From: Octopus vulgaris
Lineage: Eukaryota
Direction: 5' to 3'
Assembly: GCA_951406725.2 (NCBI GenBank)
Contig: OX597820.1
Span: forward strand, 75,020,001 to 75,084,000
Length of the DNA: 64,000 nucleotides
Below the pieces are notes generated by a model that saw nothing but the letters and a program-made list of their open reading frames with translations, ran no database searches and had not been told where the DNA came from. Each line of letters opens with the position of its first letter. The stretch's first letter is position 1. This document shows, piece by piece, positions 3,701 through 53,203 of this stretch. The position numbers were made by a program, and so were the translations under genes.

Positions 3701-5220
3701 GCAGTGAGCAACTATAGATGTTTGTATCAACCAAATTTACAAATTGCTTGGACAAATTTAGATCATGGGATTTTTAAAAATTGACTATAATTTTATGTAG
3801 GAGAACTTATAGTAGTAATATTTAAAGGTGCAAAACACTCTCCCAATATACTTTTCTTTGTAGAGAAAATAAAACTTGAGATGGAAATATAAGTGATTGA
3901 TTTAATTCTGCTGACTATGTAACTGGTAAAAGCCATGGATGATATATTTGACATATATTCCAACGCAGCATTTATAAGTTCTGTTAGTTGCCATAAAAAA
4001 GCATTATTCTAATCCTGGCATCTTTTAAAAGTTACATCAGTATAGAACTCCACAACACCAATAAATACTCTGCATACAAGAGAAAATTAACCAAACAGAT
4101 ACTAGTTACAATACTCGATCGAAATTTACCAGTGTTTCGAATTAGTTAATATGAATGAGTTTATTTAATTTATACTTGAATCAAATCATTGTAACGTAAA
4201 AGTTACAACCACGCGTCGTCTTTCTTAATGATGTTACAGTACATTTTCTAAATATTTCATTTCGATCCTTTCTAAATACAAAATTGTTATTCTGCCTTTT
4301 CAGCTTTCATGAATTGGTACTAAATTTCTTTAATGCAATTCAGCTCTGATTACAGAAATAAAATATTATTAAATCTTTAAGCGGAATCGTTAGAGTATCA
4401 GATGGATTATTAAACATAGGCTGCAGATAAGGAAACCAGTTGCTCTCTCTTTGTATCTGTAGAGAAATAAATAAAAAAATTATATTGGTTCCTTAAATCA
4501 AAATAAGGCCTGGAATTTGTGATAGAGTCAAAACGATTGTGTGCAATTTGTAATTGTCCCGAGAGCATTCGGAGCATAAACAGAGTAAAAGAGCGCTAAT
4601 GAGAAATGGGGATTTGGTTCCAGATTTGACACGACGAAATAAACTCCATAGCAACAGCAATCCTTACACAATATTGTTTAGTTGTATTATTTTCAGGATC
4701 CTCAAATAATCACCTGATACTTTACTGATTTCATACTAGATTAAGATCGAATAACATTTTAGAGGAATGAGATCCAAATTCCATAAATGAAATTTAGTAC
4801 CCATTCATGAAATTCGAAAATACTGATTAATAATTGCATTTGATTTTTTATGGAAAACAATGAAATATATTTTTATGGAAATTCAAATGAAGAATGTTTC
4901 AATGGATAATTCCATACAGATACTAAATTCTTTAACTATTCTGTTGTCATGAGAAAATTATTCTATTTTTACTTTTCAATTTAGCAACATGCTTTATTTG
5001 GTAATCTTTATTCCATAAACAGGATATTGAACTGGTTAATACACTCTGTTTCGTGTGCATTCCTCTCAGCTCAAATTTTACTTCAGGAGGTTGAGAGCTT
5101 TTCTTATATACAAAATAAAAAATACATCAGTGTAATTGTCATTAAGTCTCAAATGAAACCTGTTCGAGGAAAAATTTGATCAAAAGTATCTCAAGTTGAC
5201 CAATTTTTCGTAGATTTGTT

Positions 5221-8365: not shown

Positions 8366-8724
8366 TATATACATATACATACATACATACATACATACAT
8401 GCATATATATATATATATATATATATATGGACAGGAGTGGGTGCTGTGTGGTTAGAAGCTTGCTTCCTAATCACATGGTTGAGGTTACAGTCCCGCTGCG
8501 TTGCACCTTGGGCAGGTATCTTCTACTAAGGCATCATATAATATATATGTTACATATATATTATATGATAACTTGACACTGTTTGGACTAAGATTCCCGT
8601 TGACAGGCCGATGGAATTTTTAGAGTGTTAAACTCTTTCGTTATGTAAATAGGAACTCCTTCATTTGCTGAGTATATAAACAGTTTGGCTCTTTGTTTCT
8701 CTGGAGACTGTTGGGGTCATCTAG

Positions 8725-8772
8725 ACGGCTCTGATGAGAACCCAGTAAGGTTTGAAAATCGATTAAGGTTGT
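8725..8772 (+). ncRNA. Minimal type I hammerhead ribozyme motif with weak stem I
   Basis: CTGATGA (8731) gaacc-cagtaa-ggttt GAAA atcgat TA; palindromic stem III; stem I acggct/aggttgt imperfect. Confidence 0.6.
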
Positions 8773-9002
8773 TCAACATGTTTTTTCAGTCTGCAGAGAA
8801 ATGGTTAAATTCTGCCCTATTTATAATTATATGTTACAAATATATATTTATGTATGTGTGTATATAATATTATTTATTTAAAAGTCACAATACATGTATT
8901 AAAGCGTTACTAATAGTTTCTTATTTTGAGAAAACACAGACATAATCTTCATGCGCAAACCACATAACATAACGAATTAAAGAATGTGGTGATATGCGGT
9001 TT

Positions 9003-9055
9003 GCCCCTGATGAATATGTATGAGTTTCCTCAAAATATGAAACTATTAGTCGGGC
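9003..9055 (+). ncRNA. Type I hammerhead ribozyme
   Basis: gccc CTGATGA atat..tgag tttc ctca..atat GAAA cta-t-tag TC gggc; all three stems pair; GUC cleavage after 9051. Confidence 0.8.
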
Positions 9056-9187
9056 TTTAATACATGTATTGTGACCTTTAAATAAATAATATTTCTCTCT
9101 CACCAGATGGAGCATTTTTTTTTGTTGAATCTTCTGTCACGCATCAATACATTATGTGTGAGTGTGTTTGTGTGTGTATACATACAT

Positions 9188-12974: not shown

Positions 12975-14330
12975 TGACTGCTGAATCCATCAGGGCTAGT
13001 AGCTGAGTTTGGGTTCACTTCATCTATAGCCCTTATTACATTGTTTTCTTTTATATTGATGTAATCAATCATCACTCTCTCTGTTTTTATATCTGCAATG
13101 GTAAAAAAAAGCCAGCTGGATTCCTGACCTGCAAGTGTCCTAGGGGTGGAGTGAAAACTCTTTTGAATTGCTCATTTAGCATTTCACTTATCCTTATTGG
13201 GTTTCTGTGAGTGAACCATCATTTTCAACAGCACTACATTGAGGCTGTTTCTTTGGCAAACTTATAGAAGGCTCTGAGGTTAGATTTCATATTGCTCCGG
13301 CTTCTTTGTCTGCTCTTTCTCTTTCATGGGGGAGTTGTAGTATTTTTTTTCATCTCCAGCAGTTGTATTTTCTGGCTGGATTTTTCACTGCTTTCAATTT
13401 GTTTTTTTTTCGGCGATTTGAAATTTTCGTACGTCGTCTCTTAAGAAATTTCCTCTCCTTTCAGATTGTGTTCTCTCTCCGTGACACATTTGTAGTATAT
13501 GGCATGCATTACAGACATGAATTTTTGACGTTTCATGTCGAAGTCCGGTGAGGAGAGATATTTAAACCAGTTTTGTTTGAGGATCTCTTTCTCAATTTGT
13601 TTCCGGTTTGCCTTATGGAAGTTCAAACTGGATTGATTTTGAGAGTTTCTTGTAGGCTGTATTTCCTTGGTTTCCTTTGGTTTGTACATGGTCAGCTCTA
13701 CCATGTTGTGGTCCAAGAGTAGCATCAGCATCACTTTCGCATCATGGATGAGATCCATATTTGTGAAGCAGAGATTCAGTATATTACCTGCTCTGGTTGG
13801 AGTACTATTTGTTCCATGTAAAGATTGTTGATGAGGTTCAAGAGGGACTTCACCTGTCCTTGTTCGCATCGCGCCATTCCTGGGAGAGAAAGGCTCACAG
13901 GCCATCCGACATTGGGCAGATTGAAGTACAATAAGTACGCTTATGTGTTGTTCTAATATGTCTAGAACTTCTATTTTTGTAAGGCAGTCTTCAAACATGT
14001 CTACATGATTCGGAGCATATGGAGGGTGATATGTAGCACATATAATTACATCGAGTTGTCTTATATGTACAATTAGTGTGTCACATACCGAATTTCAGTG
14101 TGACAAAAGGATGTGGAGTGTGAGATTTTCGGAGATGTAGATAGCAAATCCAGCATGACTCCTTTCTTTTCTGTCGGTCTGTAATGCAACATACTGTGGT
14201 ATGTGTATTTCTGCCTTTGCTATATCTGGTTTCTGGTGTGTTTCCGTGAGTTGCATAAGGCTTGATTGAATGCAACAAGGTCTCTCAGGAAAGGAATTTT
14301 TGTCCTGTTACTAAGTGTTAACGTTCCTCT
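12975..14330 (-). mobile_element. Degraded CR1-group LINE (APE endonuclease and linker)
   Basis: PTRAGNILNLCFTN..DHNMV (APE C-terminal motif), NFHKAN, and DYINIKENNVIRAIDEVNPNSATSPDGF (pre-RT GPDG motif). Confidence 0.75.
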
Positions 14331-15874: not shown

Positions 15875-16545
15875 CAACTTGTTCGAGTTATTAGACTGCG
15901 GACAGGCTGGGGCACTGCCTTGAAGAACTTTTTGTCGGATGAATCTACTGCTGTACGCATTCTCTTAAGCCTGGTACTTATTTTAACGGTCTTTTTTTCT
16001 GAAACACTAGGCTACTTGAACGTAAGCATAACAACACCGGTGGTCATGCGAGGTGGAACAAACAGAGACATAAAGACACACACATACACACACATCTGCA
16101 CACATACACAGATACACACACACACATCTATATACACGTACGAACATACATATGTATATGTACATATATTATTTATTCTTTTACTTGTTCGAGTCAGTTG
16201 AATGCTGCGATGCTGGAGCACCGCCTTTAATCGAACGAATCTACCCCAGGACTTATTCTTTGTAAGCCTAGTACTTATTATATCGGATCTTCTGGCCGAA
16301 CCGCTAAGTTACGGGGGCGTAAATACACACCAACATCGGTTGTCAATCGATGGTGGGGTGGGGCAAACACACACACTTGCATATACACGACAGGCTTCTT
16401 TCGTCTACCAAATCCACTCACAAGGCTTTGGTCGACCCGAGGCTATAGTAGAAGACATACTTGTCGAAGATGCGACACAGTGGCGCGGAACCCAGAACCC
16501 TGTCTTTGAGAAGCATGCTTCTTACTACACAGCCACGCCTATGCC
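15875..16545 (-). mobile_element. Two SINE family A copies
   Basis: Reverse-complement matches to the SINE at 33916-34320. Confidence 0.75.
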
Positions 16546-16782
16546 TATATCATAATCTATAGAAGGCAGATTTTCTCTGTCTGTGACTATGTTTGTTTGC
16601 TATACGATTGTACTTTTTTGGGGTGGGGGTGGGGGTTCATATGTATTCTCATTTTTGTATATGCGTGTGTATTTATGCGTATATAATCATGTGTATTTGG
16701 GGTACTTAGTTGTGCTCATAACTTAGTCTTTGCTTCTTCCATGGCTATGAGTAAGTATCTCATTTATTTCTTTTGCCACATG

Positions 16783-16840
16783 TATCACTGACGAAGAGAG
16801 GGCTCTTAGTAGCCAACTCTGAAATCGGTCCGATATGGTA
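16783..16840 (+). ncRNA. Type I hammerhead ribozyme, copy 1
   Basis: tatca CTGACGA agag..ggct/agcc..ctct GAAA tcgg-t-ccga TA tggta; AUA cleavage after 16835. Confidence 0.85.
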
Positions 16841-17276
16841 ATAATGGAATTTATTAGAAATGTCTGTCGACCTTTTTTCGAGTAGCGTGCGTATTGTGAA
16901 AAAAATATATGGTTAATGGACAATATGTCCAATTTTTCGGCATATTTGGCATTAGAAATTTTTTCCTTTGCCCTCATTTATGAATTGTTTATAAATTTAA
17001 CCGTTTAAGGTATTTTTTAATATGCTGGCCATTGATAAAATTTTTTCGAAAAATATTTTTTTCGAAAGAAATTTTATCCTCATTAGATATAAATTTAAGC
17101 GTTCACTTCCGGACTATCTCACTCTGTGAGAGCCTCAGTTCTAATCGCACGTATCTCGAATGGGCTGGAGTATTTCTATTTTCGAGGTATTTGGGGTACT
17201 TAGTTGTGCTCATAACTTAGTGTTTGCTTCTTCCTTGGGTATGAGTAAGTATCTCATTTATTTCTTTTGCCACATG

Positions 17277-17334
17277 TATCACTGACGAAGAGAGGGCTCT
17301 TAGTAGCTAACTCTGAAATCGGTCCGATATGGTA
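17277..17334 (+). ncRNA. Type I hammerhead ribozyme, copy 2
   Basis: Same fold as copy 1 with one change in the stem II insert; cleavage after 17329. Confidence 0.85.
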
Positions 17335-17476
17335 ATAATGGAATTTTTTAGAAATGTCTGTCGACCTTTTTTCGAGTGGCGTGCGTATTGTGAAAAAATG
17401 ATATGGTTAATGGACAATATGTCCAATTTTTCGGCATATTTGGCATTAGAAATTTTTTCCTTTGCCCCCATATATG

Positions 17477-17519
<43 letters not shown>

Positions 17520-17523
<4 letters not shown>

Positions 17524-41909: not shown

Positions 41910-43433
41910 TGCAGAGAGGGAAAACCGTTTTATGTACATTACAGTATTGTCTTTCTACGCTGATTTTCGTTATTGCTTTAGGGTACCCTAACTTGATTAA
42001 ACATTATGAAGAAATATTTCCATTTATTTTATTAGCGAAGAGAAAATATATCCACCATTTAAGCATTTCTCATTGCTAGAATTAACTTCTCTTGTGAACT
42101 GAAATACATTTCCCAATATTCTTTCTACACATTTCCTACACAGTTTTTATATTCAACACGTTTGATATCAAATTCCATTTAAACGCTTCATTTGAGATGA
42201 ATAAGGTAAAATGAAACCACGATTGAACAGAGTTTTGGCATTGCATATGCAATTTTCCGATTAAGCATCAATTTTTAATTTGTCTCTAAAAGTTATTTGC
42301 GATATTAGTTAATGTAATTTTAATAACATTTCTTTTAATTTCCTTTAAGTGTATACGTATATATTTTTTCTTTTATTCACGGTCACTTAATCCTTATTGG
42401 TATTGAAGTAGTTATTAAACAAAGTCAATTCTGTGTCAGCCATTACCGTACTTCAGCGCAAACTTCAGCACAAGAAGATGTCTCTCTTGTAGTAACGCTA
42501 CTTTCATCTCATGTTTACTGATGTTTTTAATTTGAAAGCACATTTTCAATAGAGAAATCAATATTCAGAGCTATGACTATGTATTTTGCTGAAATTTAAC
42601 ATTATGCTTGGCTTTCAAAATTTAATCAGTTATCTTTCAGTAAATTAGTTTTATATGAACACAGACAAATTATATCCGCACTTACATCCACAAATACATA
42701 TTGTTTACTATGTTTACAAAATAAAAATCGATGTTATTGACCGCTTTACCTACACATAAACACATACATATACCCACTCGCGTATACATACGTACATACA
42801 CACACGCGCTTTTATACACATACACTTAATTTAGGTTTATCCAGTAAGTATTAGAGCACGTAAAAACATGTCTAACTTCCTCAGAACTAATCATAAGAAG
42901 CTGGGTTTCACATGACCAAAAAAGAACGGGGCTAATCAAATGAGTACAACTGTAAACTTATCAAAGGTACAGTCGAATTATGTAAAACATTCATGAAGCT
43001 CAATATCTCCTAAGATGAACGTAGTATTAAAACGAGGCATCATCCATTTATTCTTTATCCGCATTCAGTATTTCCCACGGAAACTGGATGCATCTAGCAA
43101 ATTGTAAAGGAAGTGGCAGTTTTTAGGTAAAAAATCAGGCATAGTCGAGGTGTTTTATAACGAAAGGTCGTTCACCCATAACATTTTCATAACACGCTTT
43201 CAGATATACTACATCCTGTTCCAGATGGTTCAATCTGCTATATTCTAACGTAAATACGTTATTACTTGAAAAAGATTCACCTAGTATTGGAACAAGGTTG
43301 AGCGACCACGTATTGGTGTTTCTATGAAAACCCGTGATTACCCGTCAGCTAATTGGTGTTATATACACATACACACATACACATACGCACACAAACACAC
43401 AAACACACACGCACACACACACACATATATATA

Positions 43434-44492
43434 CAAGGCACTGTGTTGGGCCCACTTCTCTTCATCATCTACATAAATGATATTACTGACACCATCAAAC
43501 ACAGTAACATCAGAACCTTCGCTGATGATTCCAAGCTCCAGAAGGTCATCAATGGCGTGGATGACCGAATAAACCTTCAGTCAGACCTACTGGCTGTTGT
43601 CCAATGGGCGGAAAAGAATAACATGTTGCTAAATGAAGACAAATTCGAACTGATCCACTTTGGAAGGGAGGACGCTCTGAAACTCCCATACTCTCTTCCC
43701 TCTGGAGAAATTCTCATGGCATCCAACAACATCAGAGACCTGGGAGTAACAGTGGACAACAACATAAGCTGGGCTACACATATAAGCAGCAAAGTTGACA
43801 TGGCCCGCAGAATGTGTTCCTGGATTCTCAGAACCTTCCAGTCGAGAGATTCCCACGCTATTATCCTTCTCTTCTCCACTTTTGCCCGACCCCACCTTGA
43901 ATACTGCTGTCCACTGTGGTCTCCCTACACAAAACAAAATATTATGAGAATTGAAGCTCCCCAAAGGTCAATCACAAAAAAGATAGATGGCATGTCAGAC
44001 CTTGACTACTGGGGTAGACTAGAGAAGCTGAAATTGTATTCACTCCAACGACGCCGTGAACGCTACATTATCTGTATGATGTGGAAAATATTCCATCAGC
44101 ACTGTCCGAATGATGTTGGCATCACCTTCAAAATGCATCCAAGGCTTGGACCACGTGCCATCCGTCCACAACAAAAATCTAAATCGCATCACATAACAAC
44201 AATACGGCACAACTATTTCACCTCAATTGGACCCGCTCTCTTCAACATTACACCAGGACACGTCAAAAAAGAAACTGACCACACAAAATTCAAGAAGTCT
44301 TTGGACAAATTCCTTCAAACAGTACCGGACAAACCACCCACACCCGGATATGTCTCCGCAAACAATAACTCTCTGCTCGAATGGGCCTTGGTGCCCAAAT
44401 CCTGAACTGAAAGACTTCGCCAGGTGGTGCTATTAAGTTAGACATGGCCTGGGCCAATACTGGCCAAAAACCTTTCTAAGTTATTCTAAGTT
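43434..44492 (+). mobile_element. 5'-truncated CR1-group LINE with open RT/C-terminal frame and 3' UTR
   Basis: QGTVLGPLLFIIYIND..FADDSKL..RDLGV..RPHLEYC..WSPY..RLEKLKLYSLQRRRER; stop at 44405; tail (TTCTAAGTTA)x2; the ORF N-terminus upstream of 43434 is only microsatellite. Confidence 0.9.
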
Positions 44493-44867: not shown

Positions 44868-44918
<51 letters not shown>

Positions 44919-44923
44919 CATAT

Positions 44924-44973
<50 letters not shown>

Positions 44974-45187
44974 AATAAATATTAGGGAATAAGTCCAAGC
45001 TTACAGGGAAAAATCAGATTTAGAATTGAATCCAATTTTATAGTAAAATATTATATTATATTAAATTAGAGACAAAACCACTATTAGGCAAATCAAACAA
45101 TGAAAAACTTAAGCCAATACATAAGATTATTTAATTTATATTATTTAAATATATAACAAAATTATTAAAAATATATAATTAATATCA

Positions 45188-45251
45188 CACTACGATCGTT
45201 TCATGCCTGCTAACTTCTTCAAATTTTTGAGTCGCAGTCATTCATCAGGTG
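45188..45251 (-). ncRNA. Type I hammerhead ribozyme (left arm)
   Basis: Reverse complement of the motif at 45294-45357. Confidence 0.75.
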
Positions 45252-45293
45252 GTTTAAATATTGTTTAAACCTCGCCAAGATAAATATTTAAAC

Positions 45294-45357
45294 CACCTGA
45301 TGAATGACTGCGACTCAAAAATTTGAAGAAGTTAGCAGGCATGAAACGATCGTAGTG
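45294..45357 (+). ncRNA. Type I hammerhead ribozyme (right arm)
   Basis: cac CTGATGA atg-a-ctgc-gact..agtt-a-gcag-g-cat GAAA cgatcg TA gtg; palindromic stem III; GUA cleavage after 45354. Confidence 0.75.
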
Positions 45358-45537
45358 TGATATTAATTATACTTTTTAAATAATTTTGTTATATATTTAA
45401 ATAATATAAATTAAATAATCTTATGTATTGGCTTAAGTTTTTCATTGTTTGATTTGCCTAATAGTGGTTTCGTCTCTAATTTAATATAATATATATATAT
45501 ATATATATGTGTGTATATATATATACACATATGTATG

Positions 45538-45600
<63 letters not shown>

Positions 45601-50186: not shown

Positions 50187-50247
<61 letters not shown>

Positions 50248-50279
50248 TTTATTTTAAGCAGCAGAAAATTCAACAAAAT

Positions 50280-50317
50280 CTGTTACTCTGAGTTTCTCGT
50301 TGCCGTTCATCAGACAG
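50280..50317 (-). ncRNA. Minimal type I hammerhead in PLE pLTR (sense to the ORF)
   Basis: ctgt CTGATGA a-cg-gcaa-cg-a GAAA ctc-a-gag TA acag. Confidence 0.75.
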
Positions 50318-51360
50318 TTTTTGCTAGAATGGAACTTATATATTAATTCAATCTATACTCTTACAAACGCTACACCTTTAAAAAGAAATGGACTTGTTTG
50401 ATTGGCCCTTTAGAAAAAACGGTCAATCTTCGAGCGATAAACAAAAAGGTCAAAAATATATGTATATATATATAAAAAACTTATAAAAATTATAAAATCC
50501 GAGGAAAAAACCGAGGAAAAAACCTATTGCCGTTAATGAAGACAGTGCAAATTAATGCATAGAAATTAAACCTGTTATAAATACTGCAATACATATTTAT
50601 ATTAAAATCTACATATATATATCAACATACACAAAAGGATGCGCGTAAACGCCATACATACATATACAGACGTATGAATATGAATCTAAATATACACATA
50701 AAAGCATGTGTACATATATTCACGCAAACCGTCTCGCACGCAAGCTAAAATTCATCTATGTAGCAATTCTCATATACTGAGCAAGGAGGGGGAACGAAAG
50801 AAAGGGAAAGAGAGAAAAAGGAACGAAGGAGGGTGGGGAAAAAACTTGTAACGATGTTATTGGCATCTATAGAGACCAGTATACATACACAAGTTTGAAT
50901 GGATACATATACATACCGTCGTGTATATGTGCGCTTAAGCACAAGCATACTTTCACTTACACATACACAGATACGCATGCTTTACAAATACATATGCTTT
51001 GCTATACACATACTTATATAAACATTCTAATTTTGACAACATTGCTTTTTTTAAAAAAAACATTGCTTTTAAAATATGGGTGCATTAATAAAAATATATA
51101 CGAAAGACATATAAAATAAAATATAACATCCTATTTTGGGTCATTTATAAATAATCAAGGTAATATAAATAATCAAGGTAATCCTATGCAATACAATAAC
51201 ATGAAAACAAAGTTTGTAGGTTTTTCCTAATATATATGTAGAAACATAGGACTTTGCTATACGGATTAATATCCGCGTAGCTTGGAAACAGAATCAAAAT
51301 CCGTCGTAACGCTCAAGAGTCAAAATCAAAATCAAAAATCAAAAATACAAAACATATACT

Positions 51361-52506
51361 CTATCCATATGGTATATTTATATTCGACATTTTAAATTTA
51401 GCCGCGTGCCTACATAAGTTCATTAACTCACTTCTTTGATTCAAAGAATTATTGTCTTTGAATAAGATGTGCATTTTTTCTAATAGGCAGAGTCTGCACT
51501 TGAAATTATATTTGTAAGCTCCATGCCTGTATGGTGCCGCCCTGTCCAGAATGCTCCATGTCACGTTGAAAGGTGGGGCTTCCTTTTCTTTTAGTTCCCA
51601 GACATATTTTGCTAGGCTGGTTTTCTTCCTATTCTCTGGGTATTTAAAAGAATTTTTATGAGAATAAAATCTTGTTTTAAATGAATTTTCTGAAGCCCCT
51701 GTGTATGTCTTGTATTCCGATGAGCCTTCCACTTGCACCTTGGCTCTATAAACTACTCCTTTCACTAGACATTTCCCTTCTAACGGACAGGAGCTTTCGT
51801 TTTTGAAATTACATTTCTTAATGGGCTCGGCACCATGTCTAATCTCAATTAGCTTCCTATTATGTTGGCTAATGTAAGAGGCGAAATTTCTGCAACAAGA
51901 ATAGCTAACCTTCAGGGTTCTTCTATTAAATATTCTGTAGAATTTATGACCCTGCTTAAAATGCTTAGAGACTAATCTCAAAAATTCCTTACCTATATTA
52001 GTCTTTACGGCCAAATTGAAAGCCGGGTTGAACCACAAAACTGTCCTGGTCCTAGTTCTTCGTGCAGCATTATTATTAGCATTAAGCTGGTTGAACTGGA
52101 TCTTCTCCGAGAATCCACTATTCTTTAATGCGCTATCGTAATAAGGTGCAGCATTATGGAATGCTGCCTCGTCCGAAGAAATTGAAGATATTCTTCTACC
52201 TACATTGCTGACTAAGTTGCTAAGGATAACTGGTGGATGGTTCGAATCTTTGCTAATATACGATAGCTTTTCATTGGGCTTACGGAAAGGTTTAAATCTA
52301 TCCGATCTTACATTAAAATTTACGTCTAAAAAATCTACACTATTCAGGTTAGCATCTATCGTAATCCGTAAGCCCATCCTTTGAAAGAAAGCTATAAGGT
52401 CCTTCCTAAGTCTATCTGATTCATGGCCGTTTAGATTATGCGTGGCTATAAGGCCGTCATCCCTATATAAACCTGCATCTATAAATGGGAATTCTATTTT
52501 TAGATT
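51361..52506 (-). CDS. Truncated PLE polyprotein: RT catalytic/thumb region plus GIY-YIG endonuclease (Naiad-like)
   Basis: Frame open upstream of the listed ATG: DAGLYRDDGL..VDFLDV..KPFRKP..SNHPP..WFNP..KVSYSC..CPLEGKCL..VVY..YTGASE..FKTRFYSH..CRLCLLEK..CRH. Confidence 0.9.
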   Translation of the reverse strand, partial: NLKIEFPFIDAGLYRDDGLIATHNLNGHESDRLRKDLIAFFQRMGLRITIDANLNSVDFLDVNFNVRSDRFKPFRKPNEKLSYISKDSNHPPVILSNLVSNVGRRISSISSDEAAFHNAAPYYDSALKNSGFSEKIQFNQLNANNNAARRTRTRTVLWFNPAFNLAVKTNIGKEFLRLVSKHFKQGHKFYRIFNRRTLKVSYSCCRNFASYISQHNRKLIEIRHGAEPIKKCNFKNESSCPLEGKCLVKGVVYRAKVQVEGSSEYKTYTGASENSFKTRFYSHKNSFKYPENRKKTSLAKYVWELKEKEAPPFNVTWSILDRAAPYRHGAYKYNFKCRLCLLEKMHILFKDNNSLNQRSELMNLCRHAAKFKMSNINIPYG

Positions 52507-53061
52507 GAATTATGTATGCTCATAGGAGCCTTTATTCTCCATAATCTAAAAATAGAATTCCCATTTATAGATGCAGGTTTATATAGGGATGACGGCCTTA
52601 TAGCCACGCATAATCTAAACGGCCATGAATCATGTACACATGCGTGAATATATGTACACATGCTTTTATGTGTATATTTAGATTCATATTCATACGTCTG
52701 TATATGTATGTATGGCGTTTACGCGCATCCTTTTGTGTATGTTGATATATATATGTAGATTTTAATATAAATATGTATTGCAGTATTTATAACAGGTTTA
52801 ATTTCTATGCATTAATTTGCACTGTCTTCATTAACGGCAATAGGTTTTTTCCTCGGTTTTTTCCTCGGTTTTTTCCTCGGATTTTATAATTTTTATAAGT
52901 TTTTTATATATATATACATATATTTTTGACCTTTTTGTTTATCGCTCGAAGATTGACCGTTTTTTCTAAAGGGCCAATCAAACAAGTCCATTTCTTTTTA
53001 AAGGTGTAGCGTTTGTAAGAGTATAGATTGAATTAATATATAAGTTCCATTCTAGCAAAAA

Positions 53062-53099
53062 CTGTCTGATGAACGGCAACGAGAAACTCAGAGTAACAG
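53062..53099 (+). ncRNA. Minimal type I hammerhead in the inverted pLTR
   Basis: Identical motif; GUA cleavage after 53095. Confidence 0.75.
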
Positions 53100-53203
53100 A
53101 TTTTGTTGAATTTTCTGCTGCTTAAAATAAAGCATATTACTCTACCACTGGTATTTGAGTACTCTTTTTTCCACCTTGTTTCACATTTATGTGTTTACTC
53201 CGG

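Follow-up and report, generated by a model that had tools for sequence, protein, structure and literature searches.

Anatomy of the locus

The window, a 64,000-nt stretch of Octopus vulgaris DNA, is AT-rich and microsatellite-laden animal DNA, and its SINEs and other repeats look octopus-like in style. Between 16693 and 17523 it carries two direct repeats of 294 bp (16693-16986 and 17187-17480; gap-free, period 494, 10 mismatches), each with a hammerhead ribozyme motif, followed by a tract of TA dinucleotides. The locus holds only 1.6 units, so it is not called as an array by TRF. Its features are listed below.

16693..16986, + strand: direct repeat copy 1, the 5'-truncated start of the insertion
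16776..16847, + strand: first type I hammerhead motif, with its core starting at 16788 and cleavage predicted after 16835
16824..16834, + strand: palindromic stem III of motif 1, AUCGGUCCGAU, a predicted double-hammerhead arm
16836..17329, + strand: predicted cut-to-cut monomer, 494 nt, 34% GC, with a circular fold
16855..16900, + strand: 5' arm of a predicted long-range stem, pairing with 17139-17178 (four main helices, probability 0.94-0.99)
16987..17186, + strand: once-present 200-nt part, family sequence rather than host flank
16994..17089, + strand: inferred 'tail', delimited by the family's two main 3' ends, from loose (TA)n ends
17034..17078, + strand: AT-rich palindromic hairpin with a short local duplication (computed)
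17089..17090, + strand: end-to-start unit junction (probable position), spanned by contigs X1 record 5 and X16 record 16
17184..17264, + strand: long predicted hairpin immediately upstream of the hammerhead, with four inverted joints at 17236/17237
17187..17480, + strand: direct repeat copy 2, ending at (TA)n near the first 3' end of the family, as placed by loose (TA)n ends behind 16993
17270..17341, + strand: second type I hammerhead motif, with its core starting at 17282 and cleavage predicted after 17329
17318..17328, + strand: palindromic stem III of motif 2; in the predicted inactive fold of the monomer, its 17319-17323 part pairs with 17281-17285 instead
17480..17523, no strand: (TA)22 tract at the 3' end of the insertion, the likely insertion target

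An initial annotation had described the unit as lacking any recognisable protein, and this is borne out. The longest ATG-initiated open reading frame in the unit is 54 aa, circular reading included, and tblastn of 243 proteins related to Penelope-like elements (PLEs) or LINEs against 12-22 kb of the window gave nothing below E 0.01. An open reading frame for reverse transcriptase (RT) plus GIY-YIG is absent between the repeats, so the locus does not qualify as an autonomous PLE. No target-site duplication is discernible, and the flanks are microsatellite.

Of the 10 differences between the repeats, 7 are transversions, for which assembly error or chance is possible. A SINE-like repeat (16395-16550) lies just upstream of the insertion, with 76-83% matches at 5220, 34177, 53850 and 54490 and further, shorter matches elsewhere in the window. 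Splicing between GTAAGT at 16751 and TTTTCGAG at 17186 was considered but rejected, as almost all other copies have G at 17183 and T at 17186; it is also disfavoured by the position of GTAAGT within a predicted hairpin.

Hammerhead motifs and predicted folding

Both motifs run in the order CTGACGA, a 26-nt stem II region, GAAA, TCGGTCCGA and TA, and stem I forms across the predicted cut. They share the type I arrangement of a CUGANGA/GAAA/UH core and three helices with helix I open. Two intact same-strand hammerheads within 294-bp direct repeats had been claimed at this locus, and all three stems indeed pair in both copies: stem I as 5 bp, an internal loop and 3 bp, stem II as 4 bp, a 2x2 loop and 4 bp, and stem III as an 11-nt palindrome. 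Internal loops are therefore present in stems I and II. Cleavage is predicted between AUA and U after 16835 and 17329, leaving exactly 494 nt in between.

In a structure-aware motif scan, four matches were found in the window, two of them being these motifs, whereas 30 shuffled windows averaged 0.07. The bare sequence pattern is not significant, with 16 matches in the window and 7 of 100 shuffles reaching 16. Rfam models gave no match at gathering score and, by E-value, only microsatellite-driven chance matches. Pattern scans found 23 loci in metagenomes, none resembling the 494-nt unit, and no matches in viral contigs or prokaryote genomes.

Stem III had been proposed to be far more stable as a double hammerhead between the two copies. 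Locally this holds: the duplex of 16824-16834 with 17318-17328 reaches -13.9 kcal/mol versus 0.0 for the single-copy hairpin, and the double hammerhead -40.7 versus -26.8 kcal/mol for two single ones. In folds of the 788-nt transcript, however, the double hammerhead (-210.9 kcal/mol) is less stable than the unconstrained minimum (-222.4) and than folds with one single hammerhead (-215.2 or -211.3), and more stable only than the fold with two singles (-203.1); all of these energies leave tertiary contacts out. The inactive core pairing of 17281-17285 with 17319-17323 wins locally, with a pair probability of 0.94. The active fold costs the monomer 7.3 kcal/mol, and active folds overall are 7-11 kcal/mol above the predicted minimum. 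Cutting, if any, is predicted to work best via a double hammerhead in multimers, with the core locked in the monomer.

The circular 494-nt monomer is itself predicted to be strongly folded (-134.1 kcal/mol, z -5.4, with 0 of 100 shuffles equally low). Its z is lower than that of 13 of 16 control tiles, which range from -2.3 to +1.4; the three tiles below it comprise two with long inverted repeats and one in the open reading frame of a separate PLE.

A high-copy family with defined ends

The stretch, or part of it, occurs in 20 sequencing runs from 10 studies under four organism labels, none recorded as RNA. Contigs from four of the 24 listed runs were compared with 16836-17329 at a threshold of 80% likeness. 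Matching contigs number 4,833 in X1 (DNA, organism A) and 3,777 in X3 (DNA, organism B), totals that are not copy numbers. They fall in all four identity bands (99% to <90% alike) and all 30 bins; the latter places 16987-17186 within the family rather than in the flank. With thousands of related contigs in two DNA runs, a single-copy locus, raised in the initial annotation as one outcome that would overturn its reading, is excluded. X11 (2 contigs) and X16 (100 contigs) were rejected as evidence of transcription, since the RNA nature of these runs is a guess. A joint from 17329 to 16836 was likewise rejected as evidence for circles, as it is plain read-through in any copy that spans the motif. 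Contig depth has steps at about 17160 and a trough at 17057-17073; these were discounted because contig depth gives no ranking of parts and because the trough overlaps the palindrome and duplication of the window copy.

Two main 3' ends recur among the 21 loose-end rows listed of 454. In X1 (17 contigs), X11 and X16, loose (TA)n ends lie behind 16993; in X3 (24 and 23 contigs) and X11 they follow TTTATCCTATATTAGA, behind 17053/17054. The latter corresponds to about 17089 at the window locus, so that the two ends are about 96 nt apart and delimit a 'tail'. This two-end picture is blurred by three X16 contigs that show a further, minor (TA)n end at 16959.

Among the 26 records listed of 8,833 pieces, two bridge 17089/17090 colinearly (X1 record 5 and X16 record 16). 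These contigs differ from the window by 8 and 11 letters and therefore represent other loci. Over 17004-17170 they also lack 10 and 13 letters relative to the window, from which we infer a family unit near 480-485 nt. The exact 494-nt monomer of the initial annotation accordingly stands for the distance between the predicted cuts at this locus but is locus-specific. Since other contigs share the end-to-start junction, a short unit of fixed extent is favoured over a long element that was broken, as far as these sequences go. Taken together, ends and junction suggest that the locus consists of a 5'-truncated unit that retains its tail (16693-17089), then a complete tail-less unit (17090-17480) and finally (TA)n.

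Joints within contigs were read at 80% likeness, so some may be misplaced, and the orientation of inverted joints was not reported. Of the 15 listed joints (of 21), 5 are inverted, 4 of these at 17236/17237, 46 nt upstream of the core. One inverted joint found in both DNA runs also reaches 17087. Other joints connect the neighbourhood of the 3' end with restart points at 17119, 17149, 17228 and 17231. Upstream of the unit start, X11 record 9 carries 165 non-unit letters, which may be flank or PLE body. The family thus displays the marks of PLE-type insertion, namely (TA)n targets, a tail, partial tandems and inverted 5'-truncated copies, although few rows are listed.

Both window repeats have A at 16720/17214, where the family depth is G in 99.9% (X1) and 99.8% (X3); this shared rare allele points to one template or one local duplication. 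Among the 40 variant rows listed of 99, none lies in the catalytic core, and the four that fall inside the motif leave stems I and II intact or lengthen them. One X16 variant contig (depth 77.8) apparently combines 17291G with 17312C and 17297T with 17306A, giving two compensatory stem II pairs (A-U to G-C, C-G to U-A), together with two G-C to G-U changes in stem III. The phase of this single variant was deduced from depth sums (307.7 = 229.9 + 77.8; 137.9 = 77.8 + 60.1). Against the whole-unit fold, 14 of the 40 listed variants keep pairing, 9 break it and 17 are unpaired, with 57% keeping expected; the listed variants give that predicted fold no support above chance. In a post-hoc subset of 16 common variants (15-60% in X1), 9 keep, 1 breaks and 6 are unpaired, which is a hint only. 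Changes at the cut site are present in some X3 copies.

Two X16 contigs bypass either the ribozyme (17247 to 16935) or the upstream arm (17231 to 17285). In X11 record 10, a 2,429-nt contig, the 3' part of the element (16962-17054) lies at the contig end, suggesting passive inclusion in host sequence.

Comparison with known elements

The closest published counterparts are the metazoan non-LTR retrozymes, with units of 220-240 bp in coral, 350-390 bp in mussel and 330/350 bp in axolotl (Cervera and de la Pena 2020, PMC7229834). As described in the available text of that study, they share with the octopus unit a type I hammerhead at unit spacing, a non-coding sequence, GC below 50% and many copies, as well as a self-paired predicted circle, a weak stem III suiting the dimer and PLEs in the same genome. 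The octopus unit is longer (about 480-494 nt versus 150-450) and differs in its extended stem II with an internal loop and its longer, 11-nt palindromic stem III. Its core is predicted to be locked in the monomer, whereas a free core is predicted there for most metazoan circles. Unlike with those retrozymes, no long arrays of the octopus unit were seen.

Non-LTR retrozymes have recently been proposed to be non-autonomous PLE derivatives, on the strength of co-occurrence and pLTR similarity in a set of 31 vertebrates, three insects and one coral (Li, Clavereau, Pollet 2026, bioRxiv 10.64898/2026.07.22.740005). In the accessible portion of that preprint, one of nine predicted retrozyme dimers was cleaved in vitro. 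The size of the octopus unit falls within the consensus range of 51-972 bp given there, and many solo monomers plus dimers are described. The link to PLEs drawn here comes from insertion anatomy, as opposed to the co-occurrence and pLTR similarity of Li 2026.

The unit also resembles the pLTR and tail of EN+ PLEs, going by the available sections of PMC4209133, PMC8557442 and PMC11167929. Shared features are a type I hammerhead that lies close to the 3' end and has a palindromic stem III, insertion at (TA)n, a partial tandem, a tail and inverted 5'-truncated copies. The tail is longer at the window locus (about 96 nt versus 30-40 bp), and there is no RT/GIY-YIG open reading frame between the repeats, unlike in EN+ PLEs. 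A (TA)n-targeting Hydra-clade PLE is listed for Octopus bimaculoides in the available part of Craig 2021, and this is possibly the partner class for the unit.

In the literature searched, no cephalopod retrozyme was found, and the main text of PMC7229834 contains no mention of octopus or cephalopod. Four window motifs are absent from the accessible Craig 2021 supplement, and two from the texts covered by a full-text literature search. The family may already be catalogued in repeat collections (Repbase/Dfam). The unit is a new family within an already published kind, the non-LTR retrozyme or non-autonomous PLE derivative, and since the class is known, the hammerhead pair itself is unsurprising.

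Identity and origin of the insertion

The locus is best read as an insertion of an abundant non-coding family, a non-autonomous, Penelope-mobilised non-LTR retrozyme (probability about 0.7). The retrozyme features are hammerheads in tandem at unit spacing, GC below 50%, the absence of a protein, multiple genomic copies and a highly self-paired monomer. The initial annotation had offered two options, greater-than-unit reverse transcription of a circular RNA or a truncated tandem pLTR of a PLE. These are not truly opposed, as both are accommodated by a non-autonomous Penelope-type element with partial-tandem insertions. Its retrozyme-like identity is upheld by the multi-copy, non-coding, 34% GC and self-paired unit with a shared junction, but the 1.6-mer needs no circle as its origin.

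Mechanistically, a PLE protein supplied in trans would nick the (TA)n tract and begin reverse transcription at one of two internal sites. At this locus, one event would have copied 1.6 units (788 nt), starting near 17480 at the first site and stopping at 16693. As the cDNA would run through the ribozyme site, the template would have been either uncut or cut and re-ligated. A PLE protein has been found to nick AT-rich DNA and to start reverse transcription at two internal sites, giving rise to the tail, and ribozyme cleavage was dispensable for its reaction in vitro (both from the available text of PMC11167929). The two (TA)n end classes of the family match a PLE tail bounded by two such start sites. 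PLE machinery exists in this genome, as a separate PLE lies at 50.2-53.2 kb. Blastn of the unit against this single PLE of the window gave no match, and a partner PLE sharing the unit sequence was not found; colinearity of the copies with a long PLE is disfavoured.

As for the template, an uncut tandem transcript explains the 1.6-mer as well as a re-ligated circle does, and we lean slightly towards the former. Points counted for the circle are the strong whole-unit folding, the fixed junction and the circles known from coral, mussel and axolotl retrozymes. Those counted for the uncut transcript are the PAc result, the recurring 5' breakpoints upstream of the ribozyme, the unfavourable active folds and the inactivity of eight of nine predicted dimers in the accessible portion of Li 2026. 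A fuller model is less likely than not: the family would yield a circular RNA of 480-494 nt whose ribozyme is silent as a monomer but active in multimers, and a PLE RT would copy this circle from two internal start sites. Were the circle to be true, the family would bear PLE tail and inversion marks on a circular template, offering a direct test of the proposed PLE-retrozyme partnership in a new lineage.

The retrozyme reading has to be weighed against a tandem of two 5'-truncated ends of an autonomous PLE (pLTR plus tail), with the 494-nt unit an accident of truncation. Partial tandems, tails and inversions are usual for autonomous PLEs (as covered in the available text of PMC8557442), and several other hammerhead-bearing PLE-like ends occur within the window. 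Such a tandem would also suit the X3 joints from the 3' end region to varied restarts (17119, 17149, 17231) and the non-unit letters upstream in X11 record 9, but the same colinear junction in two divergent contigs from two studies counts against it, as does the inverted joint of both DNA runs that reaches 17087. It also sits poorly with the predicted pairing between the sequence 3' of the cut and the once-present part; that no listed loose end enters coding-like sequence counts weakly (21 of 454 rows, 30 letters each). We consider this tandem unlikely, though it is the most serious competitor.

Two further explanations appear far less probable. Boundaries that fall at family ends (near 16993 for the 3' end and near 17089 for the junction), and a junction present in other copies, speak against a solo copy duplicated locally after insertion by slippage or unequal crossover, with an incidental second hammerhead, even though the rare allele at 16720/17214 would fit equally well. 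It is similarly improbable that the family belongs to some other class of high-copy repeat (SINE- or satellite-like) and has decayed, leaving the hammerhead as an inactive relic. The core locked in the predicted minimum fold, the altered cut sites in some X3 copies and the X16 contig that skips the ribozyme are in keeping with a relic, yet none of the 40 listed variant rows (of 99) touches the catalytic core, those within the motif preserve its stems, no tRNA gene was called in the window, and the ends are of PLE type.

Under the preferred reading of a Penelope-mobilised retrozyme, the value of the locus lies in a high-copy family that joins retrozyme features with PLE insertion marks. Both the enzyme that moves animal retrozymes and the circle as template, as framed in the available literature, become testable through thousands of copies with two defined 3' ends.

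Other elements in the window

The separate PLE (50242-53203) is 5'-truncated and lies on the minus strand, with an open reading frame at 51361-52509 (382 aa). The 497-bp inverted ends are 97% alike, one arm carries a 66-nt tail, and (TA)n flanks the element on either side. Hammerhead motifs lie at 50313 (-) and 53066 (+), and the internal segment 52417-52632 is inverted. No Pfam family matched the open reading frame, which has 335 relatives, many with PF26215; we take the element to belong to the Hydra clade, as a guess.

Hammerheads are commonplace in the window, given several other hammerhead-like ends (8731, 9007, 45248/45297 and the PLE). A long inverted repeat at 44912-45596 has head-to-head hammerhead-like motifs at 45248 (-) and 45297 (+), with a long stem II and a palindromic CGATCG after GAAA, and is likely another PLE end. 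The region 8660-9093 includes two hammerhead-like motifs: the one at 8731 has TATATAAA upstream of it, a weak stem I and a palindromic stem III, and the one at 9007 lies within an inverted repeat (8866-9093). For the 9007 and 45248/45297 motifs, the centre of the inverted repeat is about 25 nt upstream of the core.

A 217-aa open frame on the minus strand (13441-14094) had no Pfam match and presumably resembles a LINE endonuclease remnant. At 43353-44405, a LINE-type reverse transcriptase fragment retains an open frame of 350 aa with RVT_1.
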